Shown here: positions 9,436-26,324 of the stretch, piece after piece
Layout: the number at the start of each line of letters is the position of its first letter
Numbering within the stretch: position 1 is the stretch's first letter
NCBI GenBank assembly: GCA_040751795.1
Contig: JBFMHR010000003.1
Coordinates: forward strand, 264,421-328,420
DNA: 64,000 nucleotides
Direction: 5' to 3'
DNA from: Thermoplasmatota archaeon
GTDB taxonomy: Archaea > Thermoplasmatota > Thermoplasmata > UBA10834
Translations under genes and position numbers: made by a program
The notes under the pieces: model-generated
Told to the model about the DNA's origin: nothing
The model's input: only the letters and a program-made list of their open reading frames with translations
Databases searched by the model: none

Positions 9436-9884
9436 TCACCACCTCGCATCGGTGATGGTCCAAGTTCGTTTATCGTCTCGGTGAACTCCGTGATGGTCTT
9501 CTGGAACTTCTCGCCTTCACCGGCGGAGATCCACTCGAGCCTCAGCCTGTCCGGGTCGTAGCCGAACTGCTGTATCAGCATCTTCAGGAGGGCTATCCTC
9601 CTGCGGGTCCTGTAGTTCCCCCCTATGTAGTGGCAGTCCGCCGGGTGGCACCCCGCGACGAGTATGCCGTCCGCGCCCTTCTTGAACGCCCTCAGGACGA
9701 ACTCCGGGTCCACACGGGCCGAGCACATCACCCTGATGACCCTGAAGTAGGGCGGCATCTGCAGCCTGCTCACGCCCGCGAGGTCCGCGCCCGCGTACGA
9801 GCACCAGTTGCAGCAGAACACGATTATCTTCGGCTCGAACGCGTGCTCGGCCGCACCGTGCGCCTCCTTCGCCTCGCTGCTCAT
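9432..9884 (-). CDS. mvhD: Hydrogenase iron-sulfur subunit MvhD ([2Fe-2S])
   Basis: FCCNWCSYAGADLAG ... GCHxxDCHY motifs. 150 aa. ATGA overlaps with genes on both sides. Confidence 0.85.
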   Translation of the reverse strand: MSSEAKEAHGAAEHAFEPKIIVFCCNWCSYAGADLAGVSRLQMPPYFRVIRVMCSARVDPEFVLRAFKKGADGILVAGCHPADCHYIGGNYRTRRRIALLKMLIQQFGYDPDRLRLEWISAGEGEKFQKTITEFTETINELGPSPMRGGE

Positions 9885-12800
9885 CCCTTCACCTCCTGCT
9901 TCTTCGGCTGCTCAAGCGCAGCATCGATCATCGCCAGTATCTGCTCGTCCCTGAAGCCCTTCTGCGTCAGGGCCCCCGCAGGGCACGCGCCCACGCAGGC
10001 GCCGCAGCCCTTGCACAGCCCCACGTTGACGCTGACCATCTTCTTCTTCGGGTCGTCCTTGTGGGGCACGATGTCCAGCGCCTTGTACTCGCAGGTCGGG
10101 ACGCATATGCCGCAGCCGTCGCACAGGCTCTCGTCGACGCTCGCGACTATGCCCTCCGCCTCGAGGGTCGTCTTCGACAGGACGGTCATCGCCCTCGCGA
10201 CGGCCGCCAGGGCCTGGGATATGCTCTCGTCCACGAACTTCGGCCCGTGCGCCAGCCCCGCGAGGTACACGCCCTCGGTGGCGAAGTCGACCGGCCTCAG
10301 CTTCATGTGCGCCTCGAGGAAGAAGCCCTCCTTGGTCAAGGGCACCTTCAGCATCGGCGCGAGCTCCTCGGCGTCGTGCTGCGGCCTGGTGCCTGACGCG
10401 AGGACGAGGTAGTCGGGCCTGAGGACCAGCAGCTTGCCGGTGTCCTCCTCGGTCACCTTGACCTCCAGCTTCCCGCCCTTGTCCTCCACGACGGGCTTCT
10501 TCTCGTCGTCGAACCTGACGAACTTGACGCCCTTCTGCGAGGCCTCCTTGTAGTACTTCTCCCTGAAGCCGTAGGTCCTGATGTCCCTGAACAGGACGTA
10601 GACCTCCGCCTCCGGGTCCTTCTCCTTGACCTTCGTGGCGGCGGTCATCGTGCCCGTGCAGCACACGCGCGAGCAGTTCGGGTGGTCTCCCTCCCTGGAG
10701 CCGACGCACTGTATGAAGGCGTACGACTTCCCCTTGGCCTCGCCCTTCTTGAGCATCTCCTTGAACTCGAGCAGGGTCTTGACGTTCTTGCTCTTCCCGT
10801 AGAGGTACTCGCCCTCGGGCCTGTGCTCCTGCCCGCCGACCGCGAGTATGACAACGCCGTGCTCGACCTCCTTGCCGTCGGCGAGGGTGGTCTTGAAGTT
10901 CCCGACGTACCCCTCGATGTTCTTGACCTTGGCCCCGAGGTGCACGGTTATGTTCTTCTCCGCCCTGACCTCGGCCTCGAGCCTCTTCACGTGCTCCATC
11001 GGGTCGTCGCCGGAGGGCAGGTAGTGCAGCTTCCTCAGGTTGCCCCCGAGCTCCTTCTCCTTCTCCACGAGGTGGACCTTCACGCCCTGCCTGGCGAGCT
11101 CGAGCGCGGCCACCATGCCGCTCACGCCCCCGCCTATGACCAGGGCCTGCTGGTTCACCTTGATGGTGAGGTTCTCGAGCGGCTCCAGGAGCTTCGACTT
11201 GGCGATGGCCATCCTGACGAGGTCCTTGGCCTTCTTGGTGGCGGCCTTGGGCTCGTGCATGTGGATCCAGGAGCACTGGTCCCTGATGTTCGCCATCTCG
11301 AAGAGGTAGGCGTTGAGCCCGGCCTCCCTGATGGTGTTCTGGAACAGCGGCTCGTGGGTCCTGGGCGTGCAGCTCGCGACCACGACCCTGTTGAGCTTGT
11401 GCTCCTCGACCTTGCCCTTGATGCGCTCCTGCGCGTCCTGGGAGCAGGTGTAGAGGTTCTGCTCGGCGTAGACCACGCCCGGCAGCGTCTTGGCGTACTC
11501 CATGACCTCGGGCACATTGACGACGCCGCCGATGTTGATGCCGCAGTGGCACACGAACACGCCGATCCTCGCCTCCTGCCCGCCGACGTCCTTCTCCTTG
11601 GGGTACTCCTTCTTGGTGACGAGCGTGCCCCTGGCGGAGGCTATCTCCGTCCCGGCCCTGGCCGCGGCCCCGCTCGCCTCGGCGACCGTCATGGGTATGT
11701 CCTTGGGGGACGAGAACGCCCCGCTCACGAACACCCCCGGCCTCGAGGTCTCGACCGGGGTGAACACCCCGGTCTGGCAGAAGCCGTCGTCGTTGAGGCG
11801 GAACTTCATGACGCGGCTCAGCGCCTCCGCGTCGGAGGCAGGCGTCAGCCCGACTGCGAGCACCACGAGGTTGAAGACCTCCTCCTTCGGCTCGCCGTCC
11901 TCGGTGTACTTGAGTATGAGGTTCTTGGTCTTCGGGTCCTCGCTGACCGCGGCTATCCTCGACCGGACGAACCTGATCCCGTACTCGTCCTTGGCGCGGT
12001 TGTAGTACTCGTCGAACTGCTTCCCGAACGCCCTCAGGTCCATGTAGAATATCGAGGGCTTGATGTTGCCGCCGTGCTCCTTGGCTATGATGGCCTCCTT
12101 GACGGAGTACATGCAGCACACGCTGGAGCAGTACTCGTTCCCGCAGTGCTCGTCCCTCGAGCCCACGCACTGTATGAAGGCGATCTTCTCGGGTATGTCG
12201 CCGTCGGAGGGCCTCAGGACGGTGCCGAAGTACGGCCCGGTCGCGCTCAGCATCCTCTCGAACTCGATGCTCGTCACGACGTTCTGGTACACGCCGTACC
12301 CGTACTCGGGCTTCAGGCGCGCGTTGAACTCCTCGAAGCCGGGCGAGACTATGATCGACCCGACCTGGATCTCGAACACCCTCTCCTTCTGGTCGTACGC
12401 GACGGCCTTGGCCTTGCACTCCTCGGCGCATATGCCGCAGCCGATGCACCTCTCCGGGTCTATGGAGTAGACCAGCGGCACGGCCTGGGGGTAGCGCACG
12501 AATATGGCCTTGCGGACCTTCGTGCCCTCGTTGTACTCGTCCACGGTCTCGATGGGGCACTTCTGCGCGCAGCTGCCGCAGCCCGTGCACTTGGTCTCGT
12601 CGACCCTGAACGCCCTCTGCTTGACCGTGACGGTGAAGTTGCCCGCCTGCCCGTCCACTATGGCTATGTCCGCGTTCGTTATCAGCTGGATGTTGTGGTG
12701 CCTGCCCGTCGCGACGAGCTTGGGCGCCATGATGCACATGGCGCAGTCGTTGGTCGGGAAGGTCTTGTCCAGCTGGGCCATGACCCCGCCGATGCTCGGC

Positions 12801-12916
12801 TGCTTCTCCACCAGGTACACCTTGTACCCGGAGTCGGCCAGGTCCAGCGCGGACTGGAGGCCGGATATGCCCCCGCCCACGACCATGACGGCGCCGACCT
12901 TGTCAGTTGCGGCCAT
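9881..12916 (-). CDS. hdrA: Large heterodisulfide reductase subunit A: extra N-terminal FAD/thioredoxin-reductase-like module fused to a complete HdrA
   Basis: About 1011 aa. Residues 1-430 (VVGGGISGLQ, ferredoxin CxxCxxCxxxCP) are paralogous to the free 431-aa protein at 15582..16877. Residues ~450-1012 are a standard HdrA: RIGVFVCHCG Fe-S N-domain, second GGGVSG FAD motif, inserted and C-terminal 2x[4Fe-4S] domains. An alternative GTG start lies 3 nt upstream. Confidence 0.9.
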   Translation of the reverse strand: MAATDKVGAVMVVGGGISGLQSALDLADSGYKVYLVEKQPSIGGVMAQLDKTFPTNDCAMCIMAPKLVATGRHHNIQLITNADIAIVDGQAGNFTVTVKQRAFRVDETKCTGCGSCAQKCPIETVDEYNEGTKVRKAIFVRYPQAVPLVYSIDPERCIGCGICAEECKAKAVAYDQKERVFEIQVGSIIVSPGFEEFNARLKPEYGYGVYQNVVTSIEFERMLSATGPYFGTVLRPSDGDIPEKIAFIQCVGSRDEHCGNEYCSSVCCMYSVKEAIIAKEHGGNIKPSIFYMDLRAFGKQFDEYYNRAKDEYGIRFVRSRIAAVSEDPKTKNLILKYTEDGEPKEEVFNLVVLAVGLTPASDAEALSRVMKFRLNDDGFCQTGVFTPVETSRPGVFVSGAFSSPKDIPMTVAEASGAAARAGTEIASARGTLVTKKEYPKEKDVGGQEARIGVFVCHCGINIGGVVNVPEVMEYAKTLPGVVYAEQNLYTCSQDAQERIKGKVEEHKLNRVVVASCTPRTHEPLFQNTIREAGLNAYLFEMANIRDQCSWIHMHEPKAATKKAKDLVRMAIAKSKLLEPLENLTIKVNQQALVIGGGVSGMVAALELARQGVKVHLVEKEKELGGNLRKLHYLPSGDDPMEHVKRLEAEVRAEKNITVHLGAKVKNIEGYVGNFKTTLADGKEVEHGVVILAVGGQEHRPEGEYLYGKSKNVKTLLEFKEMLKKGEAKGKSYAFIQCVGSREGDHPNCSRVCCTGTMTAATKVKEKDPEAEVYVLFRDIRTYGFREKYYKEASQKGVKFVRFDDEKKPVVEDKGGKLEVKVTEEDTGKLLVLRPDYLVLASGTRPQHDAEELAPMLKVPLTKEGFFLEAHMKLRPVDFATEGVYLAGLAHGPKFVDESISQALAAVARAMTVLSKTTLEAEGIVASVDESLCDGCGICVPTCEYKALDIVPHKDDPKKKMVSVNVGLCKGCGACVGACPAGALTQKGFRDEQILAMIDAALEQPKKQEVKG

Positions 12917-13707
12917 CACTGCTCACCTCCGATGACGATGGTCTTGTATGTTGGAGTGAACCCCTCCGGGTGCTCCATCGCTATCATGTTCTTCTGCCTC
13001 AGGGCGACGATGTGCCTCAGGACCCTGTCCGTAGGGACGTCCATGATCTGCCCCAGCTCCTTGACGGACCTGGCCCTGCCCCTGGACAGCTCGAGGATGA
13101 GGCTCCTCTCGAACTCCTCCTCCGTCGAGGCGTCTATGATCTTGTCGAGCTCCGCCGGGTCCAGCTTGTTGCCGTAGGCGTTGCCCTTGTTGACCAGGTT
13201 CAGCTCCCTGCCGACGAGCGCCTTGAGCCTGAAGGTCTCCGACGCGCCGTCCGCTGCGGCCACCCTGTCGCCCAGCCTCTGGTCCTTCCTGACCTTGCTC
13301 GGGCCGAGCCTCCTTATGTTCTCGGTGAACTCGGTCACGACCTTGGAGAACTTCTCCCCCTCGGACGCGGAGACCCACTCCAGCCTGAGCCTCTCGGGCT
13401 CGAGCCCGCTCTCCTCGAGCAGGCGCTTCATCAGCCTCACGCGCTTCTCGGTGTAGTAGTTCCCGGAGATGTAGTGGCAGTCGCCTATGTGGCAGCCGCC
13501 CAGGAGCACGCCGTCCGCCCCGGCCCTGAATATGTCGAGGACGAGGTGGGGGCTGATCCTGGTCGAGCACATGACCCTCACGGCCCTTATGTTCGTGGGG
13601 TACTGGTACCTGCTGACCCCGCACAGGTCGGCGCCCGCGTACGAGCACCAGTTGCACAGGAACCCTATGATCTTCGGCTCGAACTCCGCCTTGGGTGCGT
13701 CGGCCAT
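12916..13707 (-). CDS. MvhD domain fused to C-terminal winged-helix-like domain X
   Basis: The N-terminal ~140 aa are MvhD (FLCNWCSYAGADL, GCHIGDCHY). The C-terminal ~115 aa are homologous to the free-standing ORF 9052..9435. Confidence 0.8.
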   Translation of the reverse strand: MADAPKAEFEPKIIGFLCNWCSYAGADLCGVSRYQYPTNIRAVRVMCSTRISPHLVLDIFRAGADGVLLGGCHIGDCHYISGNYYTEKRVRLMKRLLEESGLEPERLRLEWVSASEGEKFSKVVTEFTENIRRLGPSKVRKDQRLGDRVAAADGASETFRLKALVGRELNLVNKGNAYGNKLDPAELDKIIDASTEEEFERSLILELSRGRARSVKELGQIMDVPTDRVLRHIVALRQKNMIAMEHPEGFTPTYKTIVIGGEQ

Positions 13708-13710
13708 GGC

Positions 13711-15585
13711 TCACACCTCCTCCTGGAGCGCGGCCTTCGCCTCTGCGAGCAGCTGCGCGTCGGTGTAGTTGGTCATGGTTATCGCGCCCTCGGGGCAGGT
13801 CGCGCCGCAGCAGCCGCAGCCCTTGCACGCCGCCACGATGACCTCCGCCAGGCCCTTGTCGTTCTTCCTGAGCGCGCCGTACGGGCACACCTCTATGCAG
13901 GTTCCGCACCCGGTGCACCTGGTCTCGTCGACGACCGAGGTCAGCGCCTCGGCCTGGACGTAGCCCTTGGCCATCGGGATCGCGGCCCTCGAGGCCGCGG
14001 CCGAGCCCTGCGTGACCGCCTCGGTTATGTCCGCCGGGCCCTTGCAGGTCCCGGCGACGTATATGCCGTCGGTGGCGAAGTCGACCGGCCTCAGCTTCAC
14101 GTGCGCCTCCAGGAAGAAGCCCTCCTGGCCCAGCGGCACCTTGAGCATCTTGGACAGCTCGCCCGCGTCCGGCTGCGCCACGAGCGGGGTCGACAGGACG
14201 ACCATGTCGACGGGCATCGTCCTCTCGAGCTTCAGGGTCTCGTGGAAGTACGTGACCTTCAGCTGGTTGTCCTCCATGAAGACCTTGGGCAGGTGGTCGA
14301 GGGTGTACCTGTTGAACTTGACCCTCTTCTCCCTGGCCTTGTTGTAGGTGAGCTCGTGCTCCACGCCGTAGGCCATGACGTCCCTGTTGAACACGGTGAC
14401 CTCGATCTTCTCCGACGGCCCGAGCTTGACCTCCTCGGCCTCGCCCTCGGCCTCGCCGCGCCCGCGCCTCCTGCGCCTGCGCTCGAGGATCTCGTCGGTC
14501 GCCTTCTTCTCGACGGGGATCTTCTCGACGACGGTCCCGGCCTTCTCCATGACCCCGAGCATGTTCTCGTAGTTGTCCACGATGTTGATGGCGTTCTTGA
14601 TGGCGACGTTGCAGCAGATCCTGGAGCAGTAGGACATCTTCTGGCCCCTGGACCCGACGCACTGTATGAACGCCACGCTCTTGAGCTTCGGGAGGGTCTT
14701 CTTCTTGCACAGGATCTCGAACTCCGTCAGGGTGACGACGTTAGGGTACTGGTTGTAGCCGTACAGGCCCTCGGGGACGAACTCCAGCGCACCGGTGGCG
14801 ACGACTATCGTGCCGACCTTGAACTTCTTCCCCTCGCCCCCCTTGGGGGCGATGACGACCTCGTAGTTGCCTATGAAGCCGTCGATGCTCTTGACGGTCG
14901 AGTTCAGGTGCAGCGTGATGTTCTTGTGCCCCTTGACCTTGTCTATCAGGGGCTTTATGGTGTCCGTCGCGCCCTTCTCGGTGACGTAGAGGTTGTTCAG
15001 GAGCCTGACGAAGCCCCCGAGCTCCCCCTCCCTCTCGACGAGGTGCACGGGGAAGCCCATGTCGGCCAGCGAGGCCGCGGCGGTCATCCCGCTGACGCCG
15101 CCGCCAATGACCAGCCCGACCGGCTCGACGTCGACCTTCGCCTCCTCCTGGGGCTTTAGCAGCCTGGCCCTCGCGACGCCCATGCGGATCAGGTCCTTGG
15201 CCTTCTTCGAGGCGAGGTCCTTCTCCTTCATGTGCACCCACGAGCAGTGCTCCCTGATGTTCACGAACGTGAACAGGTACTTGTTGAGGCCGGCGCCCTC
15301 GCAGGTCGCCTGGAACAGGGGCGCGTGCGTCCTGGGCGTGCAGCTCGCCACTATGACCCTGTTCAGGTTGTGCTTCCTGATGGCCTCCCTGATGCTGCCG
15401 AGCCCGTCCTCCGCGCAGGTGTACATGTTCTGGGTCGCGTACACCACGTCGGGGAGCGTCTTCGCGTAGTCCGCCACGGTGGGGACGTCCACGAACCCGC
15501 CTATGTTGCTCCCGCAGGAGCAGACGAACACGCCTATCCTCGGCTTGTCGACCTCGTTGACCTTGTTCTCAGCCATGTCGCTCAT
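13711..15585 (-). CDS. hdrA: HdrA, complete-HdrA module (the C-half of a split large HdrA)
   Basis: Begins MSDMAENKVNEVDKPRIGVFVCSCG. The ATG overlaps the TGA stop of the upstream 431-aa gene (ATGA). Carries FAD-binding GGGVSG, an inserted ferredoxin and a C-terminal 2x[4Fe-4S] ferredoxin domain. Confidence 0.85.
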   Translation of the reverse strand: MSDMAENKVNEVDKPRIGVFVCSCGSNIGGFVDVPTVADYAKTLPDVVYATQNMYTCAEDGLGSIREAIRKHNLNRVIVASCTPRTHAPLFQATCEGAGLNKYLFTFVNIREHCSWVHMKEKDLASKKAKDLIRMGVARARLLKPQEEAKVDVEPVGLVIGGGVSGMTAAASLADMGFPVHLVEREGELGGFVRLLNNLYVTEKGATDTIKPLIDKVKGHKNITLHLNSTVKSIDGFIGNYEVVIAPKGGEGKKFKVGTIVVATGALEFVPEGLYGYNQYPNVVTLTEFEILCKKKTLPKLKSVAFIQCVGSRGQKMSYCSRICCNVAIKNAINIVDNYENMLGVMEKAGTVVEKIPVEKKATDEILERRRRRRGRGEAEGEAEEVKLGPSEKIEVTVFNRDVMAYGVEHELTYNKAREKRVKFNRYTLDHLPKVFMEDNQLKVTYFHETLKLERTMPVDMVVLSTPLVAQPDAGELSKMLKVPLGQEGFFLEAHVKLRPVDFATDGIYVAGTCKGPADITEAVTQGSAAASRAAIPMAKGYVQAEALTSVVDETRCTGCGTCIEVCPYGALRKNDKGLAEVIVAACKGCGCCGATCPEGAITMTNYTDAQLLAEAKAALQEEV

Positions 15586-16877: not shown

Positions 16878-17085
16878 TCAAAGTCCTCCACGAGTCCTAA
16901 ACGATGGTTCCCCTAGTCTACGCCTCACTCGGCTCCGTGATCCTGAACTCAAGGGGTTTGCGCGCCCTGCCGGGCCCCTCTCCGTAACCTTTCCTCTGTA
17001 TTATCTGTTTCGTTGGACGGGCGACGAGTGTCGCGCCCCCGGACCTCACGTCCGTGCGGATATCGTCGGCCGGCAGGCGTCCGCG

Positions 17086-19087: not shown

Positions 19088-19113
19088 TATGTTCGGCTCG
19101 AAACGCTCCTCGG

Positions 19114-22100
19114 TCAGGCGCCCACCTCCTCGTCCTTCCCCTCGGGCGCGAGGAGCGCCTCGAGCATGGTCATGATCTGGTCGGTCTTGAAGTGCTTCGG
19201 CCTTATCGCCCTGGAGCAGCACGCGACCGCGCAGGAGCCGCAGCCCTTGCACAGAGCCTCGTTGATCTTCGACTTGAACACCCCTGGCGAGACCTCCTCG
19301 ACCCTGGGCGCCCCGTACTCGCACAGCTCCTCGCACCTGCCGCATGCGATGCACTTCTCGGGGTCTACCTCCGAGACGACGCCCTCCGCCTCGATGAACG
19401 GCTTGGACAGGACCGTGTTGACCCTGGCGGCCGCCGCAAGGGCCTGGGATATGCTCTCGTCTATGAGCCTCGGGGAGTGCGCCAGGCCGCAGAGGAATAT
19501 GCCGTCGGTGGCGAAGTCGACCGGCCTCAGCTTCATGTGCGCCTCGAGGAAGAAGCCCTCCCTCGTCAGCGGGACCTTGAGCATCTGGGCCAGGTCCTTG
19601 TTGTCAGGGTTGGGCCTGACGGCCGCGTTGAGGACCAGGTAGTCGGGCCTGATGGTCACGGTCTGCTCTATGAACTGCTCGTCCACCTCGACGGTGAGGT
19701 GGCCCCCGTGCTCGCTCACCCTCGGGGGCGACGAGGGGTCGTACCTCAGGAACACCACGCCGAGCCTCGCGGCCTCGTTGTAGTTCTCCTCCCTGAAGCC
19801 GAAGGTCCTGATGTCCCTGTAGAGGACGTACACGGCCGTCCCCGGGTGGTCCTGCTTGATCTTCATCGCGTTGGCCATGGCCGTGGAGCAGCAGATCCTG
19901 GAGCAGTTGGGGTGCTCCTCGTCCCTCGAGCCGACGCACTGGATTATGACCACGCTCTTCGCCTTGAAGTCCTTGCCCGAGACCATCTCCCCGAGGTCGG
20001 TCTGCCTGATGACCTTCGGGTCCTTCCCGAAAAGGTACTGCTCGGGCTCGTGCTCGACGGCCCCCGTCGCCACGACTATGGCGCCGTGCTGGACCTTCTC
20101 CCCGCTCCCGAGGGTGGTCTCGAAGTTGCCGATGTAGCCCTTGACCTCGGCCACGGTGTCCTCCAGGTGGACCTTGATCCTCGGGTCCCCCATGACCTCC
20201 TTCTCCAGCTTCCTGAAGGTCTCCTGGGGGTCGACCCCTATGAGGGTGCGGTGTATCCGCCTGAGGTGGCCGCCGAGGTGCTTGCTCTTCTCCACGACGT
20301 GCACGTCGAAGCCGCTCCTGGCGATCTCCAGGGCGGCGGTCATGCCGCTCAGGCCGCCCCCAATGACGAGCGCGGACTGGGTGACGGGTATCCTGGGCTG
20401 CGGGAGCGCCTCGAGCGTGGCCGCCTTGGCGACGGCCATGCGGACCAGGTCCTTGGCCTTCTCCGTCGCGCGCTCCGGCTCCCTCCTGTGCACCCACGAG
20501 CACTGGTCCCTGATGTTGGCCATCTCGAACAGGTACTTGTTCAGGCCCGCCTCCTTCACAGTGTTCTGGAAGAGCGGCTCGTGGGTCCTGGGGGTGCAGC
20601 TCGCGACCACGACCCTGTTGAGGTCGTGCTTCTCGATGGTCTCCCTGATCTTCTTCTGGGTGTCCTGCGAGCAGGTGTAGAGGTTCTGCTCAGCCACGAT
20701 CACGTGCTGGAGAGTCTTGGCGTACTCCATGACCTCCGGCACGTCCACGACCGAGCCGATGTTGATGCCGCAGTGGCAGACGAAGACGCCGATCCTCGGC
20801 TCCTTGCCCGCGACCTCCTTCTCCTTGGGGTACTCCTTCTTTGTGACGAGTGTCCCCCTGCTCTCCGAGAGGAGCGCCGCCGCCTTGCCGGCGGCGCCGC
20901 TGGCCTGCGCGATCGAGTCGGGGATGTCCTTGGGCCCGGAGAACGCGCCGCACACGTAGACGCCGGGGACGGATGTCTCAACCGGGGACAGCTCGTCCGT
21001 CTCGCAGAAGCCGAACTTGTTGAGGTCGACGCCCAGCACCTTGGCGAGCGCGCCCGTCGCCTCCGGCGGCCTCGCGCCCGCCGAGAGCACCACGAGGTCG
21101 AACGCCTCCTCGGCGATGTCGGCCCCCTCGAGGTAGCTGAGGATGACGTTGCCCGTGGCAGGGTCCTCCTGCAGCTTGGATATCCTGTTGTTCCTGAGGA
21201 CGCGGACGCCGTACTCGTTCTCCGCGCGCATCAGGTATTCCTCGAACTCCTTGCCGAAGGCCCGCGTGTCCATGAAGAAGATGGCCGTGTCGAGGCCCGG
21301 GACGTGCTCCTTGCCGATGACGGCCTGCTTGAGGGCGGCCATGCAGCAGTAGGAGGAGCAGTAGGTGTTCCCCGTCTGCGCGTCCCTCGAGCCGACGCAC
21401 TGGACGAAGGCGATCTTCTTCGGGACGTCGCCGTCCGAGGGGCGGATCACATGCCCCTCCGTCGGGCCCGACGCGCTCAGCATCCTCTCGAACTCGATGT
21501 TGGTCAGGACGTTGGCGTACACCCCGTGCCCGTACTCCGCCTTCTTCGACGCCTCGAAGACGTCGTAGCCGGGGCTGAGGATGATCGAGCCCACCTCGAC
21601 GACCTCCTCCTTGTCCGGCTTCTCGGAGTAGCTGATGGCCTTCGCCTCGCAGAATTTCTCGCAGATGCCGCAGCCGATGCAGAGGCCCCTGTCTATGGTA
21701 TAGACCAGGGGCACGGCCTGGGGGAAGGGCACGTAGATGGCCTTGGCCGGCGCGAGCTCCCTGTCGAAGGCGTTCAGCCCCTCGACCGGGCAGTGCTCCG
21801 CGCAGACGCCGCAGCCCGTGCACTTCTCCTCGATGATGTACCTGGAGCGCCTGGTGAGGGTGACCTTGAAGTCGCCGGCCTTCCCGTCGACCTTCTTGAG
21901 CTCCGCGTTGGTGAGCATGGTGATGTTCTCGTGCCTGCCCGTGGCTACGAGCTTGGGGGACACGATGCACATGGCGCAGTCGTTGGTCGGGAAGGTCTTG
22001 TCCAGCTGGGCCATGGTGCCGCCTATGCTGAGGCCGGCCTCGAGTATGTACACCTTGAAGCCGGAGTCGGCGAGGTCCAGGGCCGCCTGTATGCCGGCGG

Positions 22101-22149
22101 GGCCGCCGCCCACGACGAGGACGGCGCCGACCTTCTTGTGCTCTGCCAT
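19114..22149 (-). CDS. hdrA: Large heterodisulfide reductase subunit A (second copy of the tandem-module architecture)
   Basis: 1011 aa. Same arrangement as 9881..12916, about 60-70% identical to it by eye. Two GxGxxG FAD motifs, RIGVFVCHCG, several 4Fe-4S motifs. Confidence 0.9.
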   Translation of the reverse strand: MAEHKKVGAVLVVGGGPAGIQAALDLADSGFKVYILEAGLSIGGTMAQLDKTFPTNDCAMCIVSPKLVATGRHENITMLTNAELKKVDGKAGDFKVTLTRRSRYIIEEKCTGCGVCAEHCPVEGLNAFDRELAPAKAIYVPFPQAVPLVYTIDRGLCIGCGICEKFCEAKAISYSEKPDKEEVVEVGSIILSPGYDVFEASKKAEYGHGVYANVLTNIEFERMLSASGPTEGHVIRPSDGDVPKKIAFVQCVGSRDAQTGNTYCSSYCCMAALKQAVIGKEHVPGLDTAIFFMDTRAFGKEFEEYLMRAENEYGVRVLRNNRISKLQEDPATGNVILSYLEGADIAEEAFDLVVLSAGARPPEATGALAKVLGVDLNKFGFCETDELSPVETSVPGVYVCGAFSGPKDIPDSIAQASGAAGKAAALLSESRGTLVTKKEYPKEKEVAGKEPRIGVFVCHCGINIGSVVDVPEVMEYAKTLQHVIVAEQNLYTCSQDTQKKIRETIEKHDLNRVVVASCTPRTHEPLFQNTVKEAGLNKYLFEMANIRDQCSWVHRREPERATEKAKDLVRMAVAKAATLEALPQPRIPVTQSALVIGGGLSGMTAALEIARSGFDVHVVEKSKHLGGHLRRIHRTLIGVDPQETFRKLEKEVMGDPRIKVHLEDTVAEVKGYIGNFETTLGSGEKVQHGAIVVATGAVEHEPEQYLFGKDPKVIRQTDLGEMVSGKDFKAKSVVIIQCVGSRDEEHPNCSRICCSTAMANAMKIKQDHPGTAVYVLYRDIRTFGFREENYNEAARLGVVFLRYDPSSPPRVSEHGGHLTVEVDEQFIEQTVTIRPDYLVLNAAVRPNPDNKDLAQMLKVPLTREGFFLEAHMKLRPVDFATDGIFLCGLAHSPRLIDESISQALAAAARVNTVLSKPFIEAEGVVSEVDPEKCIACGRCEELCEYGAPRVEEVSPGVFKSKINEALCKGCGSCAVACCSRAIRPKHFKTDQIMTMLEALLAPEGKDEEVGA

Positions 22150-22150
22150 G

Positions 22151-22609
22151 TCAGACCCCCTCCCCGTAGATCGGGCCGAGCCTCTGGAGCTCGGCGACCA
22201 TCTCCTTCACGACGTTCGCGAACTTCTGCCCCTCGGAGCCCGCTATCCACTCGATCCTGAACCTCTGCGCCTCTATCCCCGCGTCCTCGAGGAACGATGA
22301 CAGGAAGTCGCCGCGCATGGCGGCCTTCTCGTTGCCGTTGATGTAGTGGCAGTCCGCCGGGTGGCACCCGGCGACTATGACGCCGTCCGCCCCGAGCTCG
22401 AAGGCCTTGAGCACGAAGGCAGGGTCCACCCTCCCGGAGCACATGACCCTGACTATCCTCACGTTCGGGGGGTACTGTATCCTGGTCGTACCGGCGAGGT
22501 CGGCCCCCGCGTACGAGCACCAGTTGCAGCAGAAGGCCACGATCCTCGGCTCGTACCCGGCCTGCTCCTCGGCCGCCTCGTGCTTCTTCGCGTGCGTGGT
22601 CACGGTCAC
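22151..22609 (-). CDS. mvhD: MvhD-type [2Fe-2S] subunit (standalone, GTG start overlapping the hdrB stop as GTGA)
   Basis: EPRIVAFCCNWCSYAGADLAG, GCHPADCHY. 153 aa. Confidence 0.8.
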   Translation of the reverse strand: MTVTTHAKKHEAAEEQAGYEPRIVAFCCNWCSYAGADLAGTTRIQYPPNVRIVRVMCSGRVDPAFVLKAFELGADGVIVAGCHPADCHYINGNEKAAMRGDFLSSFLEDAGIEAQRFRIEWIAGSEGQKFANVVKEMVAELQRLGPIYGEGV

Positions 22610-23523
22610 GACCCCCTGAGCTTCCGCAGGAGCGAGTGGGCCGACACGTGGTGCGTGTCGAAGCCCAGCGAGATCGGGTCTATGCCCATGGCGAGCGCCT
22701 GGAACTGGGAGACGTGCATCACGGGGATGCCGTCCTTGGAGAAGGCCTTCTGGGCGTTGTCGAACTGGAGGAGGCAGAACGGGCAGCCCGTGACGACGCA
22801 GTCCGCGCCCACGGCCCCGATCTTCCTGCACTTGTCCTCGGTGAGCGAGTTGGCCAGGTCCACGACGTGCGACCTCACGCCGCCGCCCGCGCCGCAGCAG
22901 TCGAGCTTGTCGTCGTAGTCCACGCTCGTCGCGCCGCACGCCTCGACTATGTTGTCCAGGAGGACGGGGTTGTTGGGGTCGTCTATGGTCCTGCTCTCGG
23001 TCGGCCTGAGGTAGTGGCAGCCGTAGTGGACCGCGACCCTGATGTTCTTCAGCGGCCGCTTCACCTTCGCCTGGATGGCCTCGATCCCGATGTCCTTGGC
23101 CATGAGCTCGATGTAGTGCCGGACGGTGACGGGCTCGAAGACCCTCCTCTTCCCCTCGCTCTTCTTCGGCACGCCGGTGTACTTCTTGCCGACCTGCGCC
23201 AGGACCCTGTTCACCTTGCCCATGCTCTTCGGGTCCTTGAGGTACTCGGTGGCCTTCATGAGGGACGTCAGGCAGCCGTTGCAGACCGTCAGGATGTCCC
23301 TCCTCTCGTCCTGCGCCAGGACGAGGTTCCTCGCCGCGAGGAGCAGCCAGGTCTCCTTGTCGGTGGAGTAGAATATCCCCGGGACGGGGCAGCACGAGAA
23401 CTCGGGTATGTCCTTGACGTCGAGGTCGAAGCCGTCCTTGCCGCAGACCCATCTCACGGCGTACTCGATGCCCGGGTACCTGTTGGGTATGACGCACCCG
23501 AAGAAGTAGGCGTAGGACGTCAC
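22606..23523 (-). CDS. hdrB: Heterodisulfide reductase subunit B
   Basis: Two CCG domains (CCPVPG..., CCGAGGG...CPFC). GTG start preceded by GGAGGTG. 305 aa. Confidence 0.9.
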   Translation of the reverse strand: MTSYAYFFGCVIPNRYPGIEYAVRWVCGKDGFDLDVKDIPEFSCCPVPGIFYSTDKETWLLLAARNLVLAQDERRDILTVCNGCLTSLMKATEYLKDPKSMGKVNRVLAQVGKKYTGVPKKSEGKRRVFEPVTVRHYIELMAKDIGIEAIQAKVKRPLKNIRVAVHYGCHYLRPTESRTIDDPNNPVLLDNIVEACGATSVDYDDKLDCCGAGGGVRSHVVDLANSLTEDKCRKIGAVGADCVVTGCPFCLLQFDNAQKAFSKDGIPVMHVSQFQALAMGIDPISLGFDTHHVSAHSLLRKLRGS

Positions 23524-24104
23524 GGGTTCACCTCCGACTCGATGCCGATGAGCTTGTCGTACTTGGAGGCGTGGACGAGGACGCCGATCTCCCTGAGGAC
23601 GTTCTTGAAGCCCGGGCTGAACGTGTGGATCTCGCCGAGGCCCAGCTCCTTCCTTATCTTGTTGATCTCCTCGTCGGGCTTGACGCTCTGGCCGTACCTG
23701 ACCAGGTTGGTGGCCGCGACCTTTATGAACGGCGGTATGACGCCCTCGCGGACGGCGATGTGCCTCAGCGCGATCATGACCTCGGCCGGGTTGATGTCGG
23801 CGGGGCAGTGCTCGTAGCACCTGTAGCACGTGGCGCAGACCCACCTGGTGCCGAGCGTGTAGTTCTTCAGCCCGAACTGGCAGAACTTCATGATGCTCCT
23901 GGTCTTGTAGTCGATCTTGAGGCTGATGGGGCACACGCCGGTGCAGTTGCCGCACTGGAGGCAGGTCATGACGTCCTTGCCGCTGTACTTCTTGATCTCC
24001 TTGGCGAAGCCGGGCTCCAGCTGGGACTCGTCGATGACCTTCTCCTCGACCAGCTCCTCCTTGAGCCCGCTGATGAAAGTCTTCTCGACCTCTCCCATGC
24101 TCAC
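23520..24104 (-). CDS. hdrC: Heterodisulfide reductase subunit C
   Basis: Two [4Fe-4S] motifs: CLQCGNCTGVCP and CATCYRCYEHCP. 194 aa. Confidence 0.9.
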   Translation of the reverse strand: MSMGEVEKTFISGLKEELVEEKVIDESQLEPGFAKEIKKYSGKDVMTCLQCGNCTGVCPISLKIDYKTRSIMKFCQFGLKNYTLGTRWVCATCYRCYEHCPADINPAEVMIALRHIAVREGVIPPFIKVAATNLVRYGQSVKPDEEINKIRKELGLGEIHTFSPGFKNVLREIGVLVHASKYDKLIGIESEVNP

Positions 24105-26188
24105 ACCTCCGCCCCGGCCTTCTTCTTGGCCGCCCTAGGGTGCCCGTTCGCGGACAGGGCCGCGACGAGCTCCGAGCATATCTGGTCGTCGGTGAACTGC
24201 CTGGCGGTGATGGCCGTCTGCGGGCACGAGGCCGCGCAGGTGCCGCAGCCGTGGCACAGGGCCTCTATGATCCTGGCCCTGGTCCTCCCCTCCTCGTTCT
24301 GGAAGAGCTCGGGGGCGCCGTACGGGCACAGCTCCGTGCACAGGCCGCACCCGACGCACAGCGACTCGTCTATCTGGACCGTTATGGGCTCGACCCTGAC
24401 CTTGCCGGTGAGCATCAGCGCCGCCGCGGACGACGCGGCCGCCTTGGCCTGGGCCACGGAGTCGGGGATGTCCTTCGGCGCCTGCGCGCACCCGGCCAGG
24501 AAGACGCCGTCCGTGGCGGTGTCGACCGGCCTGAGCTTCGGGTGCGCCTCGGCGAAGAACCCGTCGGCGCTGACCGGGAGGCTGAGGATCTTGCCGATGC
24601 GCTTGCTCCCCTCGGACGGGAGCAGCCCCACGGAGAGGACGACCAGGTCGAACTGCCTCTCGGTGATCTTGTTCAGCAGGGTCTCCTCGGCCCTGATCAT
24701 TATGCTCTTGGTCTCGGGGTCCTGGCTCAGCTTCGCCGGCCTGCCCCGGATGAACTCGACCCCGAACTCCTCCCTCACCCTGTGGTAGAGCTCCTCGAAG
24801 CCCTTGCCGAACGCCCTGATGTCGTTGTAGTAGACCGCTATCTCGGTCTCGGGCTCGTGCTCCTTGATGATCTGGGCGTTCTTGATGGCGTACATGCAGC
24901 AGACGCGGGAGCAGTAGTTCCTGTCGATCTTCTTGTTCCTGGACCCGACGCACTGTATGAACGCCACGCGCTTCGGGACCTTCTTGTCCGAGGGGCGTAT
25001 GAGGTGCCCGCCGGTCGGGCCGGAGGCGTTGAGGAGCCTCTCCAGCTCCAGGGCGGTGATGACGTTCTCGTACTCCCAGTACTTGTAGACGCCCTTCTTC
25101 ATGGGCACGTATGTCTCGAAGCCGGTCGCGACGATGATCGTGCCGACCTTGAGGTCGAGGACCTCGTCCTCCATCTTGTGGTCGATGGCCTTGTTGGCGC
25201 ACTCCTTGACGCAGAGGAGGCACTTGCCGCTCTTGAAGTGCAGGCAGTTCTCCTTGTCGACGGTGTACTTGAGGGGCACGGCCTGCGGGAAGGGGACGTA
25301 TATGGCCTTCCTCTTGCCGAAGCCCATGTCGAACTCGTTCTCCACCTTCACGGGGCAGACCTCGGCGCAGACGCCGCAGCCGACGCACTTGTCCTCGTGC
25401 ACGAACCTGGCCTTGCGCCGGACCTTGACGTCGTAGTTGCCGATGTAGCCCTTGACGTCCTCGACCTCGGAGTAGGACAGGAGGGTGACGTTGGGGTGCC
25501 TGGCGAGCTCGACCATCTTCGGGGCGAGTATGCAGATCGCGCAGTCGCCCGTGGGGAAGGTCTTGTCCAGCTGGGCCATGACGCCCCCGATGCTCGGCTT
25601 GGACTCGACCAGGTAGACCTTGAAGCCCATGTTGGCGAGGTCGAGCGTGGCCTGTATGCCGGCGACGCCGCCTCCAACGACCAGCGCCTTGGGCTCGACC
25701 GGCACCTCCCTCGACTCCAGGGGGGCGAGCCTCGCGGCCTTCGAAACCCCCATGCGGACGAGGTCTATGGCCTTCTCGGTGGCCTTCTCCTTCTCCTGGT
25801 TGTGGACCCAGGAGCACTGCTCCCGGATGTTGACCATGTGGAGCACATACGGGTTCAGGCCGGCCCTCTGGATGCAGGCCCTGAAGGTCGGCTCGTGCAT
25901 CCTGGGTGAACAGGACGCGATGACGACGCGGTCGACGTTGGCCTCCTTGATCGCCTTGACGATCTCCTCCTGGCCTAGGTCGGAGCACGTGTACTTGTTG
26001 TCCCTGGCGACGACGACCCCGGACATCTTCGCCGCCTCCTCGGTGACCTTCGGGCAGTCCACCACTCCAGCTATGTTGCTGCCGCAGTGGCACACGAAGA
26101 CCCCGATCCTGGGCGTGGTCGTCTCGGCTTGGGTTGTCTTTTCCGTGCTTGTCAAAGGTTCCTCTTTCAGAGGCTCGGGCGACCCCAT
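24101..26188 (-). CDS. hdrA: Heterodisulfide reductase subunit A (standard single-module form)
   Basis: PRIGVFVCHCGSNI N-domain, GGGVAGIQ FAD motif, inserted and C-terminal ferredoxin domains. Start taken at ATG 26188, preceded by GGAGGGGG. The longer ORF reaching 26260 has no support. Confidence 0.88.
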   Translation of the reverse strand: MGSPEPLKEEPLTSTEKTTQAETTTPRIGVFVCHCGSNIAGVVDCPKVTEEAAKMSGVVVARDNKYTCSDLGQEEIVKAIKEANVDRVVIASCSPRMHEPTFRACIQRAGLNPYVLHMVNIREQCSWVHNQEKEKATEKAIDLVRMGVSKAARLAPLESREVPVEPKALVVGGGVAGIQATLDLANMGFKVYLVESKPSIGGVMAQLDKTFPTGDCAICILAPKMVELARHPNVTLLSYSEVEDVKGYIGNYDVKVRRKARFVHEDKCVGCGVCAEVCPVKVENEFDMGFGKRKAIYVPFPQAVPLKYTVDKENCLHFKSGKCLLCVKECANKAIDHKMEDEVLDLKVGTIIVATGFETYVPMKKGVYKYWEYENVITALELERLLNASGPTGGHLIRPSDKKVPKRVAFIQCVGSRNKKIDRNYCSRVCCMYAIKNAQIIKEHEPETEIAVYYNDIRAFGKGFEELYHRVREEFGVEFIRGRPAKLSQDPETKSIMIRAEETLLNKITERQFDLVVLSVGLLPSEGSKRIGKILSLPVSADGFFAEAHPKLRPVDTATDGVFLAGCAQAPKDIPDSVAQAKAAASSAAALMLTGKVRVEPITVQIDESLCVGCGLCTELCPYGAPELFQNEEGRTRARIIEALCHGCGTCAASCPQTAITARQFTDDQICSELVAALSANGHPRAAKKKAGAEV

Positions 26189-26324
26189 GGTTCCCCCTCC
26201 TACTCGACTTGCCGCGTCGAAGTGCCGGATGGCCCGAGTGACCCCGCGGGAAGGCACCATTTCCTGCCGACTGGCGCTCCCACTCAGACCAGGTGTCGGA
26301 CGAGTGCAGATAATAAAGAGGTGC

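Follow-up and report, generated by a model that had tools for sequence, protein, structure and literature searches.

An archaeal Thermoplasmata operon with one [NiFe] hydrogenase and four HdrA units, three of them asymmetric type II cores, that may form a tethered, H2-fed assembly

The MvhAGD-HdrABC complex of Methanothermococcus thermolithotrophicus (PDB 5ODC; related structures 8RVU and 7BKB) is the solved Mvh-Hdr complex, with an HdrA homodimer, and several other HdrA systems have been described. ANME archaea and methanogens carry type II and tandem HdrA proteins with two FAD modules, between which the N-terminal domain and Cys197 are complementary (PMC9012536, PMC12054007); such proteins have been proposed to form their own heterodimer (PMC9012536), and type II HdrA, for which there is no biochemistry, has been described as a fusion of A6 and A12 (PMC12054007). 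The Hdr-type methylene-THF reductases (HdrCBA-MvhD-MetVF) of Moorella thermoacetica and Sporomusa ovata have an MvhD subunit and an HdrA with an extra N-terminal flavin module and a C-terminal HdrA part that lacks the inserted ferredoxin domain; one flavin site carries the bifurcation signature, and S. ovata HdrA, with two such sites, pulls down MvhD, HdrB and MetF (PMC9430772). HdrL or type III HdrA, which is HdrA with a GltD or NfnB insert (PMC2702500, PMC5947623, PMC9012536), occurs in Desulfobacterium autotrophicum, Syntrophobacter fumaroxidans and ANME-1 as a large HdrA-like protein followed by mvhD, without a matching hydrogenase. [quoted passage not shown]

The cluster described here lies in a 64-kb stretch of DNA (the window) from an uncultured Thermoplasmata archaeon. 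All of its hydrogenase and Hdr genes are intact ORFs on the minus strand, and the single strand had been read correctly in an earlier note on this DNA. The full set covers ~19.7 kb, a conserved operon pair of ~20 kb, and not the 17 kb (9881-26188) proposed there, an interval whose upper end is the correct hdrA start but which leaves out the last mvhD (9432-9884), mvhG and mvhA. The four HdrA-type genes counted in that note hold as units but not as genes, for there are five hdrA ORFs with seven FAD (thioredoxin-reductase-like) modules, matching the NCBIfam HdrA2 model at 524-1035 bits; it had also overlooked the asymmetric, type II nature of three of the four. Its four MvhD domains are confirmed (PF02662, E = 1e-54 to 1e-57), but one gene (17522-19117) had been entered under both MvhD and HdrD-like. 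The single hdrCB and mvhGA that it listed are present. The HdrA/MvhD pattern of profile matches is far above chance level.

The gene stoichiometry is seven FAD modules to four MvhD, two disulfide-reductase modules and one hydrogenase. The supposed excess of HdrA and MvhD is real in that the units outnumber the hydrogenase and HdrBC; MvhD itself is not in excess, its four domains facing four MvhD-dockable HdrA modules, because each type II core has a single MvhD-entry branch. Only the hydrogenase (one) and the disulfide-reductase modules (two: HdrBC and an MvhD-fused HdrD-like module) are under-represented. The genes are joined by 4-nt ATGA, GTGA or CTGA overlaps, with a sole internal gap of 208 nt, and make up two translationally coupled blocks.

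Hydrogenase maturation genes flank the block. Upstream, on the minus strand, are hypB (30554-31228; Pfam cobW/HypB/UreG, E = 1.4e-21), encoding the Ni-inserting GTPase, the carbamoyltransferase gene hypF (28337-30544; HypF_C_2, E = 1.7e-55, with zf-HYPF and Acylphosphatase), hypC (28074-28301; HupF_HypC, E = 1.1e-26), hypA (27696-28070; E = 2.8e-24) and hypD (26621-27703; E = 3.4e-130); an identical hypB-F-A-D to hdrA order is seen in locus L056. Downstream are a maturation endopeptidase (5966-6481, minus; HycI, TIGR00072, E = 1e-30) and, on the plus strand and convergent with the operon, hypE (4695-5969; AIRS and AIRS_C), whose frame has a GC3 of 0.88 and whose true start is probably downstream of 4803. 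A MobA-like gene (4189-4803; PF12804 at 115 bits, under the NCBIfam MobA cut-offs) is divergent from hypE. It had been taken as a hint of a Mo/W-enzyme partner, but it is a weak one: it does not belong to the operon and has no molybdoenzyme near it.

The hydrogenase is encoded by mvhG (8037-9050; small subunit, Oxidored_q6, NF045875 VhuG, E = 1.8e-66) and by mvhA (6516-8030), whose group-3c-like large subunit (NiFeSe_Hases; NF041785 VhuA, 410 bits) has both Ni-binding CxxC motifs (CGVC at 75, DPCNSCGTH at 472) and a cleavable C-terminal tail.

Unit 1 is a canonical HdrA-HdrC-HdrB-MvhD set. Its type I HdrA (24101-26188) aligns end to end with 5ODC_A (E = 5e-269, residues 3-644) and has the full set of four domains and every cluster ligand: the N-terminal cysteines, Cys194/197, eight cysteines of the inserted ferredoxin domain, four of HA4 and eight of the C-terminal ferredoxin domain; E356 and K409 are kept. 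The ATG at 26188 that starts the gene follows GGAGGGGG; upstream there is a TATA-like CCTATATTAAG, the 432-nt spacer to hypD (26189-26620) being AT-richer. With an ATGA overlap follows hdrC (23520-24104; TIGR03290 CoB_CoM_SS_C, E = 3.5e-35), with two CX2CX2CX3C motifs, then hdrB (22606-23523; two Pfam CCG matches, E = 8e-30), which has two complete C..CC..CxxC motifs and scores 324 bits against the TIGR03288 cut-off of 345, and a plain mvhD (22151-22609; 152 aa, FlpD, E = 1e-53), whose GTG start overlaps the hdrB stop. HdrB, HdrC, MvhD, MvhG and MvhA all carry the motifs expected from MvhAGD-HdrABC; the locus differs from that system in its three additional asymmetric HdrA cores and in its 7:4:2:1 gene stoichiometry.

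These three cores each pair an HdrA' with an HdrA, fused in units 2 and 4 and split in unit 3. HdrA' combines Cys197 with the FAD domain and an inserted ferredoxin domain of two clusters, and lacks the N- and C-terminal Fe-S domains; its partner has those two Fe-S domains and lacks Cys197 and the inserted ferredoxin domain. Aligned to 5ODC_A, the halves are complementary in all three cores and in every ortholog. Each HdrA'/HdrA pair mimics the HdrA homodimer of the solved complex, but with a single MvhD-entry and a single ferredoxin branch.

In unit 2, the fused protein (19114-22149; 1011 aa, HdrA2 at 992 bits in three stretches) keeps Cys194/197, the inserted ferredoxin domain, E356 and K409 in its N half, while its C half has the N- and C-terminal Fe-S domains without Cys197 or the inserted domain, E356 being replaced by G and K409 by A. 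It is followed by a 531-aa fusion of MvhD with an HdrD-like (HdrC plus HdrB) module (17522-19117; FlpD, E = 8e-56, a Fer4 dicluster and two CCG matches in one frame), which contains the CX2CX2CX3C and the CCG motif twice each; loci L032, L040 and L044 encode mvhD and hdrD separately. Unit 3 begins, after the 208-nt spacer (16878-17085) in which an internal promoter may lie, with a 431-aa HdrA' (15582-16877; HdrA2 positions 139-562, 537 bits) that has Cys194/197, eight inserted-ferredoxin cysteines, the HA4 cysteines, E356 and K409 and consists of the FAD and inserted ferredoxin domains only, without N- or C-terminal domains. Its partner HdrA (13711-15585; 624 aa), starting with the ATG at 15585, has both terminal Fe-S domains, lacks Cys197 and the inserted domain, and retains E356 and K409 in 25/25 close orthologs. 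The unit 4 fusion (9881-12919; 1012 aa, HdrA2 at 1035 bits in three stretches, 5ODC_A at E = 4e-217) shows the complementary pattern of unit 2, with K at 356 and T at 409 in its C half, conserved in ~34 orthologs, and is joined by an ATGA overlap to a plain mvhD (9432-9884; 150 aa, FlpD, E = 1.2e-56). E356 and K409 are both reported as conserved in three quarters (75%) of type II sequences (PMC12054007). In units 2 and 4 the C half has lost them, and its FAD may be non-bifurcating; this makes a strict 'tandem bifurcation' reading less secure.

The MvhD of unit 3 (12916-13707; 263 aa, FlpD at residues 13-135, E = 5e-54) has a 125-aa C-terminal winged-helix-like extension, homologous (30% identity, E = 5e-16) to a free-standing 127-aa, ArsR/SmtB-like winged-helix protein encoded at 9052-9435. 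A type II hdrA follows the MvhD-extension in 87/89 locus instances (median gap 21 nt). The two are also found as one polypeptide, in P0390 (HdrA-MvhD-extension-linker-HdrA') and P0341 (MvhD-extension-linker-HdrA'), with P0249 being HdrA-MvhD-extension; these stem from metagenomic protein sets and some could be mis-called. A further small protein, orf147 (17086-17502), has two invariant ELSCKDxKCxPCTYPNCQRF repeats with eight cysteines, all eight invariant across 62 sequences, and is probably an Fe-S or metal protein. Its 209 homologs are all unnamed and from Thermoplasmata-type metagenomes, some with PF04060 'FeS'. Its AF2 model was unusable (pLDDT 39).

The gene order is identical in at least 18 related Thermoplasmata MAG loci, with orthologs 70-94% identical. 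Three to five units surround one hydrogenase, unit 1 being missing from loci L010 and L030 and a fifth unit present in L008 and L020. Eight close relatives have a GltD/NfnB-like insert of the HdrL type in their unit 3 HdrA' (e.g. L017, 5633-8338); orf147 occurs in 19 loci without the insert and is absent from 8/8 loci with it, and the present locus has orf147 and no NAD(P)H-binding insert. Homologous units adjoin MetV and MetF in Syntrophales (L066-L074) and, in other Thermoplasmata MAGs, FrhB/FdhB-like proteins (L040, L042, L048) and Flx-like NAD-binding/Fe-S proteins (L050, L053, L061, L069).

With the ANME and methanogen systems (Chadwick et al. 2022, PMC9012536; PMC12054007) our locus shares HdrA copies in excess of HdrBC, HdrD-like genes within the cluster and, in its type II cores, the two complementary FAD modules; split unit 3 corresponds to the A6 plus A12 pair and units 2 and 4 to their fusion (PMC12054007). 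It differs in being linked to a hydrogenase rather than to FdhB and a non-catalytic molybdopterin protein, and in having three cores per operon together with the MvhD extension and the 8-Cys protein. The order HdrA' then HdrA is that of S. ovata; the text on ANME HdrA3/4 gives the opposite. Syntrophales loci with homologs of units 3 and 4 (52-55% identity) have the order hdrC-hdrB-hdrA'(GltD)A-mvhDext-hdrA'A-mvhD-metV-metF; in our locus the [NiFe] hydrogenase occupies the place of MetVF, metV and metF are absent from the window, and so is the GltD/NAD(P)H insert. BamE follows the same logic as several joined cores, a likeness by description rather than sequence, but there are no Bam genes here and the donor is the hydrogenase.

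We tentatively propose, at a probability of roughly 0.45, that the four cores are not free-standing enzymes awaiting other donors but parts of a multi-core, H2-fed assembly. The position of the MvhD-extension before type II hdrA genes, and its fusion to the next HdrA' elsewhere, favour this, the fusions suggesting that consecutive units are physically joined; the evidence for complex formation consists of gene order and these few fused polypeptides. The winged-helix extension would act as the tether between a core and the HdrA' of the core after it, so that block 2 would yield one two-core assembly of unit 3, MvhD-extension, unit 4, MvhD, the 127-aa protein and MvhGA. Block 1 would supply the disulfide-reducing exits, unit 1 with HdrBC and unit 2 with MvhD-HdrD, together with the 8-Cys protein; its link to block 2 is a guess, as the plain MvhD of unit 1 and unit 2 carry no tether. 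The CCG motifs of HdrB and the HdrD-like module, the HdrC motifs, the MvhD cysteines and the Ni motifs of MvhA, all present, are in keeping with such an assembly. So are the complementary halves of the three cores, for which the literature proposal of a self-made heterodimer offers a precedent, the overlapping genes, the flanking hyp genes, the lack of any other donor gene in the 64-kb window and the order kept in 18 loci.

The earlier note had instead suggested hydrogenase-independent bifurcating complexes, each extra unit docking another donor such as formate dehydrogenase, F420H2 or ferredoxin. In the form weighed here, the partner is a donor or acceptor encoded elsewhere in the genome and could also be NAD(P)H, MetFV or, for F420H2, a protein of the FrhB type that oxidises it. 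The idea is supported in part. For this locus we consider it unlikely, although it is the alternative to which we give most weight: the diverse neighbours and inserts of homologous units make docking of other donors conceivable, and hydrogenase-free MvhD is common in sulfate reducers (PMC2702500) and ANME (PMC9012536), but the cluster, and the 64-kb window as a whole, encode neither a Mo/W enzyme nor Fdh, Frh, MetF or Flx, nor does conserved synteny supply such a partner, and the units are coupled translationally to one another and to mvhGA, inside the hyp genes, with the fusions pointing to physical coupling between neighbouring units. Less probable again is that the four cores are interchangeable on one MvhAGD hydrogenase, forming separate 1:1 complexes at different times, swapped by acceptor (HdrBC, HdrD-like or none) or growth condition. 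A single hydrogenase beside four MvhD paralogs that are 53-61% identical to one another and each adjoin a core of their own, the variable unit content among relatives and the symmetry-breaking mixed complexes known in methanogens (discussed in PMC9012536) fit this; however, all cores would be co-expressed from a single operon whose stop and start codons overlap, and the placing and fusions of the MvhD-extension are left unexplained.

A role of the winged-helix proteins as redox-sensing transcription factors of the operon, with no structural part, is compatible with every other reading and would cover the free 127-aa protein and possibly the extension; we find it unlikely, and the least probable of these three. 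The free protein is annotated publicly as 'ArsR family transcriptional regulator', is basic (pI ~10; median of the free form 9.8), matches Pfam HTH_5 (23.7 bits) and HTH_IclR (24 bits) barely over cut-off and has an AF2 model (pLDDT 91) resembling ArsR/SmtB repressors, and an HTH regulator of hdr genes, HdrR, is known in Methanosarcina (PMC11218639). Against this, the Foldseek matches to the PDB are weak (best SmtB, E = 0.011, TM 0.43-0.55), the extension, where fused, has an acidic median pI of 5.9, unlike a DNA binder, and the domain is rare (350 matches in 1.84 billion representatives) and set inside HdrA-MvhD-extension-HdrA' polypeptides; clusters hold as many as three or four copies of it, which is odd for a regulator. 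The free basic paralog may nonetheless simply be one. That the extra copies are decaying duplicates, pseudogenes or assembly artefacts is effectively refuted. The overlapping ORFs 13711-16566 and 15582-16877 resemble a frameshift at first sight, but the overlap of the unit 3 hdrA start with the hdrA' stop is a clean ATGA junction in every relative. The unit 2 mvhD-hdrD lacks a canonical start codon, but probably starts with a CTG that has a good Shine-Dalgarno sequence and stands where orthologs carry ATG, GTG or TTG. ORFs are intact, all cofactor ligands are kept, paralogs are 41-61% identical and the order is conserved.

Returning to the tethered, H2-fed assembly, it would overall carry out flavin-based electron bifurcation driven by H2, perhaps in two stages, with reduced ferredoxin (or the 8-Cys protein) as the low-potential product and a disulfide as the high-potential acceptor, or alternatively a partner encoded elsewhere such as MetF. 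CoM-S-S-CoB is an unlikely substrate here, since the lineage is reported without Mcr: two related MAGs are assigned by the literature to UBA10834 (Ca. Gimiplasmatales), an order reported without Mcr and with the Wood-Ljungdahl pathway (Zinke preprint 10.1101/2020.03.09.984617; PMC11264602). The type II core is a known but biochemically unstudied type, and its adjoining of other redox partners elsewhere indicates that the HdrA'A-MvhD family is modular, as the earlier note had supposed; as homologous units in relatives pair with MetVF, FrhB-like, Flx-like and GltD modules, it is possible that the cores of this archaeon also have partners encoded elsewhere in its genome.

On the minus strand of the window, where G+C is about 65% and shadow ORFs are abundant, profile searches picked out one coherent gene set, built around four groups of HdrA and MvhD genes that we call units 1 to 4 in transcription order. 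Unit 1 consists of hdrA (24101-26188), hdrC (23520-24104), hdrB (22606-23523) and mvhD (22151-22609), all minus-strand like the genes that follow. Unit 2 has a double HdrA of 1011 aa (19114-22149) and an MvhD-HdrD-like fusion (17522-19117), and is followed by the gene for a cysteine-rich protein (the 8-Cys protein, 17086-17502). Unit 3, beyond a 208-nt spacer (16878-17085), has separate genes for a 431-aa HdrA′ (the half with FAD and an inserted ferredoxin domain; 15582-16877) and its 624-aa HdrA partner (13711-15585), then an MvhD with a 125-aa C-terminal extension (12916-13707). Unit 4 consists of a double HdrA of 1012 aa (9881-12919) and mvhD (9432-9884), after which come a 127-aa winged-helix protein (9052-9435), mvhG (8037-9050), mvhA (6516-8030) and a maturation protease (5966-6481). 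The protease and a complete hypABCDEF set flank the hdr/mvh block on both sides: hypB (30554-31228), hypF (28337-30544), hypC (28074-28301), hypA (27696-28070) and hypD (26621-27703) lie upstream on the minus strand, and hypE (4695-5969, plus strand) is convergent with the operon. Both hypE and hypC were concealed by longer shadow ORFs. In the cluster as a whole, ORFs at 16949-17410, 17535-18497, 18510-19067, 22151-23497 (a long form), 26284-26550, 4487-5842, 5084-5467 and 5472-5911 were rejected as shadow or over-extended frames, with no Pfam match or with a true gene in another frame.

The cluster thus holds five hdrA ORFs with seven FAD modules, four MvhD domains, one hdrBC, one hdrD-like module and one mvhGA. 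An earlier note, made from the sequence alone, had counted four HdrA genes, four MvhD genes, one hdrCB, one HdrD-like module and one mvhGA; the profile searches agree with it on units, while as genes its four HdrAs are five ORFs, and one MvhD and the HdrD-like module that it listed apart, although each is present, share a single polypeptide. It had also placed the whole set upstream of position 9881, below which the last mvhD and mvhGA in fact fall, and the nearby MobA it mentioned does exist as a MobA-like gene (4189-4803), but outside the operon and divergent from hypE. Decay of the extra copies to pseudogenes, which that note had allowed for, is excluded. What looks like a frameshift in unit 3 is a pair of ORFs that overlap cleanly by ATGA, and all relatives have the gene divided in this way.

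Stop and start codons overlap by 4 nt at most gene junctions of the cluster, which gives two translationally coupled blocks; the disulfide-reductase modules are both in the first, the hydrogenase is in the second, and neither block has the other's enzyme. Just two non-coding spacers in the cluster are of any size, and both were inspected by eye: one is the 208-nt spacer at 16878-17085, the other a 432-nt spacer between hypD and hdrA (26189-26620), where an AT-rich stretch with CCTATATTAAG is a plausible archaeal TATA box. The internal spacer may contain a second promoter, in which case the cluster would form two transcription units. The conserved start position of the unit-2 mvhD-hdrD gene (19114-19120, minus strand) has no ATG, GTG or TTG; a CTG there overlaps the preceding stop as CTGA, with GGAGGTG 6 nt 5′ of it, and in orthologs the same codon is ATG (the majority), GTG or TTG. 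Either rare CTG initiation or a start through translational coupling could apply. Elsewhere we observed a sensor histidine kinase of 945 aa with multiple PAS domains (21-2858, plus strand), a few kb from the cluster, and a double-wHTH protein at 47406-47981; the rest of the 64-kb window holds housekeeping genes only, and the hydrogenase is the sole partner encoded near the cores.

All seven HdrA modules were aligned to the solved HdrA of the Methanothermococcus thermolithotrophicus MvhAGD-HdrABC complex (5ODC_A, whose numbering is used here), its sequence being reconstructed from its alignment. Only the unit 1 HdrA has the full type I feature set, namely four domains (the N-terminal cluster domain, the TrxR-like FAD domain with the HA4 cluster and its cysteines, and the inserted and C-terminal ferredoxin domains, each with 2x[4Fe-4S]) together with Cys194/197, E356 and K409; each of the six other modules is without some of these. 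The HdrA′ modules (the N halves of units 2 and 4, and the 431-aa unit 3 gene) have Cys194/197, the inserted ferredoxin domain (8/8 Cys), HA4 and E/K, and have neither the N-terminal cluster domain nor the C-terminal ferredoxin domain. The 624-aa partner in unit 3 has the N-terminal domain, the C-terminal ferredoxin domain, HA4 and E/K, and has neither Cys194/197 nor the inserted ferredoxin domain; the C halves of units 2 and 4 share this pattern, with G/A and K/T respectively at 356/409. Thus the inserted ferredoxin domain is confined to the HdrA′ half and the C-terminal one to the HdrA half, a pattern kept in orthologs. Units 2 and 4 have two TrxR-like FAD modules per polypeptide and unit 3 is the unfused pair; both unit 3 genes keep E/K, whereas in the second FAD module of each fused HdrA (9881-12919 and 19114-22149) E356 is replaced by G or K and K409 by A or T. 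These substitutions are fixed clade-wide, and E and K are retained in more distant relatives.

In domain content, each HdrA′/HdrA pair imitates a homodimer of HdrA in which the MvhD-entry and ferredoxin branches occur once each. With a single MvhD-entry branch per type II pair, the four MvhD domains match four dockable modules, and the real imbalance is one hydrogenase and two disulfide-reductase ends per four cores. Paralogs within the window are 41-61% identical, which marks them as old duplicates that have been retained. A search of the PDB found no solved structure of a fused (type II) HdrA. Type II HdrA has been described as an A6-like plus A12-like fusion forming a self-heterodimer, and the two-FAD polypeptides of units 2 and 4 match it; their C halves differ from it at E356 and K409, the residues associated with bifurcating flavins, which type II HdrA is expected to keep at both flavin sites. 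Both residues are conserved in 75% of type II sequences, which has been read as both domains being capable of bifurcation (PMC12054007).

No catalytic motif is disrupted in HdrB, the HdrD-like module, HdrC, MvhD or MvhA: HdrB carries a pair of CCG motifs for non-cubane clusters, HdrC two ferredoxin-type motifs, and the unit-2 HdrD-like fusion both sets. MvhA and MvhG have VhuA (410 bits) and VhuG (224 bits) as their top NCBIfam families, scores that lie under the curated cut-offs of 800 and 450; the Ni-binding CxxC pairs CGVC and CNSC are present, as expected for a group-3c [NiFe] hydrogenase, together with MvhD. The canonical MvhAGD-HdrABC complex comes from an equimolar 1:1:1:1:1:1 gene set, from which this locus departs, and its substrate CoM-S-S-CoB presupposes a methanogenic host with Mcr. 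The ferredoxin-domain insert that characterises type III HdrA/HdrL, GltD/NfnB-like and NAD(P)H-binding, is absent from all window copies. Also absent from the window are an MTHFR or DUF5981 gene, in contrast to the Hdr-type MTHFR clusters (HdrCBA-MvhD-MetVF) in which metV and metF adjoin hdrCBA-mvhD, and the flxABC genes for NAD-binding and Fe-S subunits that stand beside hdr and the MvhD-like flxD in FlxABCD-HdrABC. A Qmo-like reading was put aside: there is no QmoC-type membrane subunit, and the qmoC model matches the HdrC part only, scoring 64 bits where the cut-off is 300.

Scanning species-representative genomes gave 74 related loci (numbered L0xx, each with 10 kb on either side), the nearest being in uncultured Thermoplasmata MAGs at 80-94% amino-acid identity. 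Two of the closest, RBG_13_57_23 and RBG_19FT_COMBO_56_21, have been placed in the order UBA10834 (Ca. Gimiplasmatales), an order reported to be without mcr, to possess CODH/ACS and an H4F Wood-Ljungdahl pathway, and to be a candidate methylotrophic acetogen; the same papers name just ‘HdrA-D, MvhAGD’ (10.1101/2020.03.09.984617; PMC11264602). The synteny comparison that the earlier note proposed shows the entire order from unit 2 to mvhA in 18 loci. Variants include L010 and L030, without unit 1 and the 127-aa protein; L008 and L020, with a fifth unit of an additional hdrA′A and mvhD-ext (an mvhD with the extension); and L056, in which unit 1, hdrA′A and mvhD-ext are followed directly by hdrA′A. 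In one MAG only (L028, CAWBDD010000021.1, 8368-14883), the matches to hdrA, hdrA′A, mvhD and the 127-aa protein are split, most likely through assembly indel errors rather than as real pseudogenes.

The unit-3 MvhD extension (12916-13302) is homologous to the free 127-aa protein (9052-9435; E = 5e-16). Used alone as a query it gave only 12 close matches, and a profile from 29 loci-derived sequences was used instead; the alignment of these 29 diverse copies defines a conserved domain that contains no cysteine, has FRLRxL, GNVYG and a helix-turn-helix, and is rare (350 matches among 1.84 billion representative proteins). The AF2 model of the 127-aa protein (pLDDT 91) has helices and an ArsR/SmtB-like winged helix, H-H-H plus a two-strand wing; its Foldseek matches in the PDB are weak (SmtB, CzrA and NolR, E = 0.01-0.05, best 0.011, TM 0.4-0.57), and Pfam HTH_5 scores 23.7 bits. 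The protein is thus predicted to have the winged helix-turn-helix fold of ArsR/SmtB regulators. In 87 of 89 cases the next gene after mvhD-ext is a type II hdrA, at a median gap of 21 nt. Single polypeptides also exist with the arrangements HdrA-MvhD-ext (P0249), HdrA-MvhD-ext-linker-HdrA′(GltD) (P0390) and MvhD-ext-linker-HdrA′(GltD) (P0341), and fusions of this kind are textbook evidence for a physical link between successive cores. The fused extension is usually acidic (median pI 5.9) and the free form basic (median 9.8; about 10 for the window copy), which suggests functional divergence, perhaps between structural tether and regulator. Position, charge, rarity and fusions argue for a structural role of the fused extension.

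The 8-Cys protein (17086-17502, minus strand) carries two invariant ELSCKDxKCxPCTYPNCQRF repeats with eight cysteines, whose CX2CX4C part resembles the PF04060 ‘FeS’ motif; its AF2 model has pLDDT 39, and its 209 homologs, all unnamed, are essentially confined to Thermoplasmata-type metagenomes. In eight loci of close relatives (L011, L013, L017, L021, L023, L025, L051 and L063) the unit-3 hdrA′ has a GltD/NfnB-like NAD(P)H-binding insert of about 470 aa at the position of the inserted ferredoxin (L017, 5633-8338), the same site as in 1483-aa fusions of bacterial relatives (L069, 5919-10370). The 8-Cys gene is found in none of these eight loci, whereas 19 of the 21 loci that lack the insert have it. 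Because the eight probably form one clade, the exclusion may reflect a single evolutionary event.

We propose that units 3 and 4 and MvhAG form one H2-fed two-core assembly, with the MvhD extension as holder, and that units 1 and 2 would supply the HdrBC and HdrD-like exits. Low-potential electrons would leave through ferredoxin or the 8-Cys protein, in whose place relatives have an NAD(P)H module. At high potential, the acceptor would be some disulfide or else the product of a gene located elsewhere, for instance MetF. To this mechanism as a whole, from two-core assembly to ferredoxin and disulfide acceptors, we give a probability of 0.45. A bolder form, which we regard as doubtful, gives the winged-helix extension the specific task of linking type II HdrA cores in head-to-tail series, as a modular ‘bifurcation cascade’ whose number of flavin cores varies (2 to 5 in the loci seen), fed here by a single [NiFe] hydrogenase and ending in HdrBC and the HdrD-like module, with ends exchangeable elsewhere (8-Cys protein, GltD insert, MetVF, FrhB/Flx-like).

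The wider family gives some weight to the view of the earlier note that the surplus HdrA/MvhD modules are independent, hydrogenase-free platforms docking varied donors. Distant Thermoplasmata and Methanomassiliicoccales MAGs have up to four tandem [hdrA′A-mvhD-ext] with a terminal [hdrA′A-mvhD] after them, and Syntrophales, Desulforamulus and one Bacillota MAG have hdrC-hdrB-hdrA′(GltD)A-(mvhD-ext)-hdrA′A-mvhD. In Syntrophales metV and metF adjoin the units, as in the Moorella/Sporomusa type methylene-THF reductase cluster; other homologous units neighbour FrhB/FdhB-like proteins or, in L050, L053 and L061, Flx-like trios. Such varied neighbours mark the HdrA′A-MvhD family as combinatorial and support the general idea; in this lineage, however, the hydrogenase is the only partner encoded nearby, and fully independent platforms here seem rather improbable. 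That the four cores are alternatives on one hydrogenase we consider unlikely. Less probable again is that the winged-helix proteins are regulatory, which would be compatible with any of the other models; the indirect evidence on sequence-specific DNA binding is that the free form is basic and the fused form acidic, and that in other organisms the domain occurs inside Hdr polypeptides.

That HdrA and MvhD can outnumber hydrogenase and HdrBC is already known (PMC2702500, PMC9012536), as are fused and tandem asymmetric HdrAs (PMC9012536, PMC12054007, PMC11237513, PMC9430772) and the ‘type II’ or heterodimeric logic, in ANME archaea (PMC9012536), methane-metabolising archaea generally (PMC12054007) and the HdrA of S. 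ovata and M. thermoacetica (PMC9430772). GltD inserts in HdrA, and HdrD-like genes in such clusters, are also known. In the literature on such systems we found no description of a conserved operon with four cores and a single hydrogenase, of the putative winged-helix tether on MvhD or the rule for its position, of MvhD fused to HdrD, of the 8-Cys protein or the way it and the GltD insert exclude each other, or of C halves that have lost E356/K409 as those of units 2 and 4 have.

Type II HdrA is widespread, in ANME, Asgard and TACK archaea, acetogens, syntrophs and sulfate reducers. It has reportedly had no biochemical study (PMC12054007). This locus offers a clean natural system, in which a conserved operon pair unites three type II cores and a canonical one with a single hydrogenase and two disulfide-reductase ends, and its proposed tethering domain gives a concrete, testable prediction of inter-core wiring. 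If the multi-core reading fails, it is a well-annotated case of the known phenomenon of HdrA/MvhD exceeding hydrogenase or HdrBC. If that reading is true, HdrA/MvhD gene-copy excess in many genomes need not mean many separate enzymes, and it bears on how Mcr-lacking Wood-Ljungdahl Thermoplasmata obtain low-potential electrons from H2. A true cascade would represent a quaternary architecture new to flavin-based electron bifurcation, and could be the route by which a non-methanogenic Wood-Ljungdahl-type archaeon obtains low-potential ferredoxin from H2.
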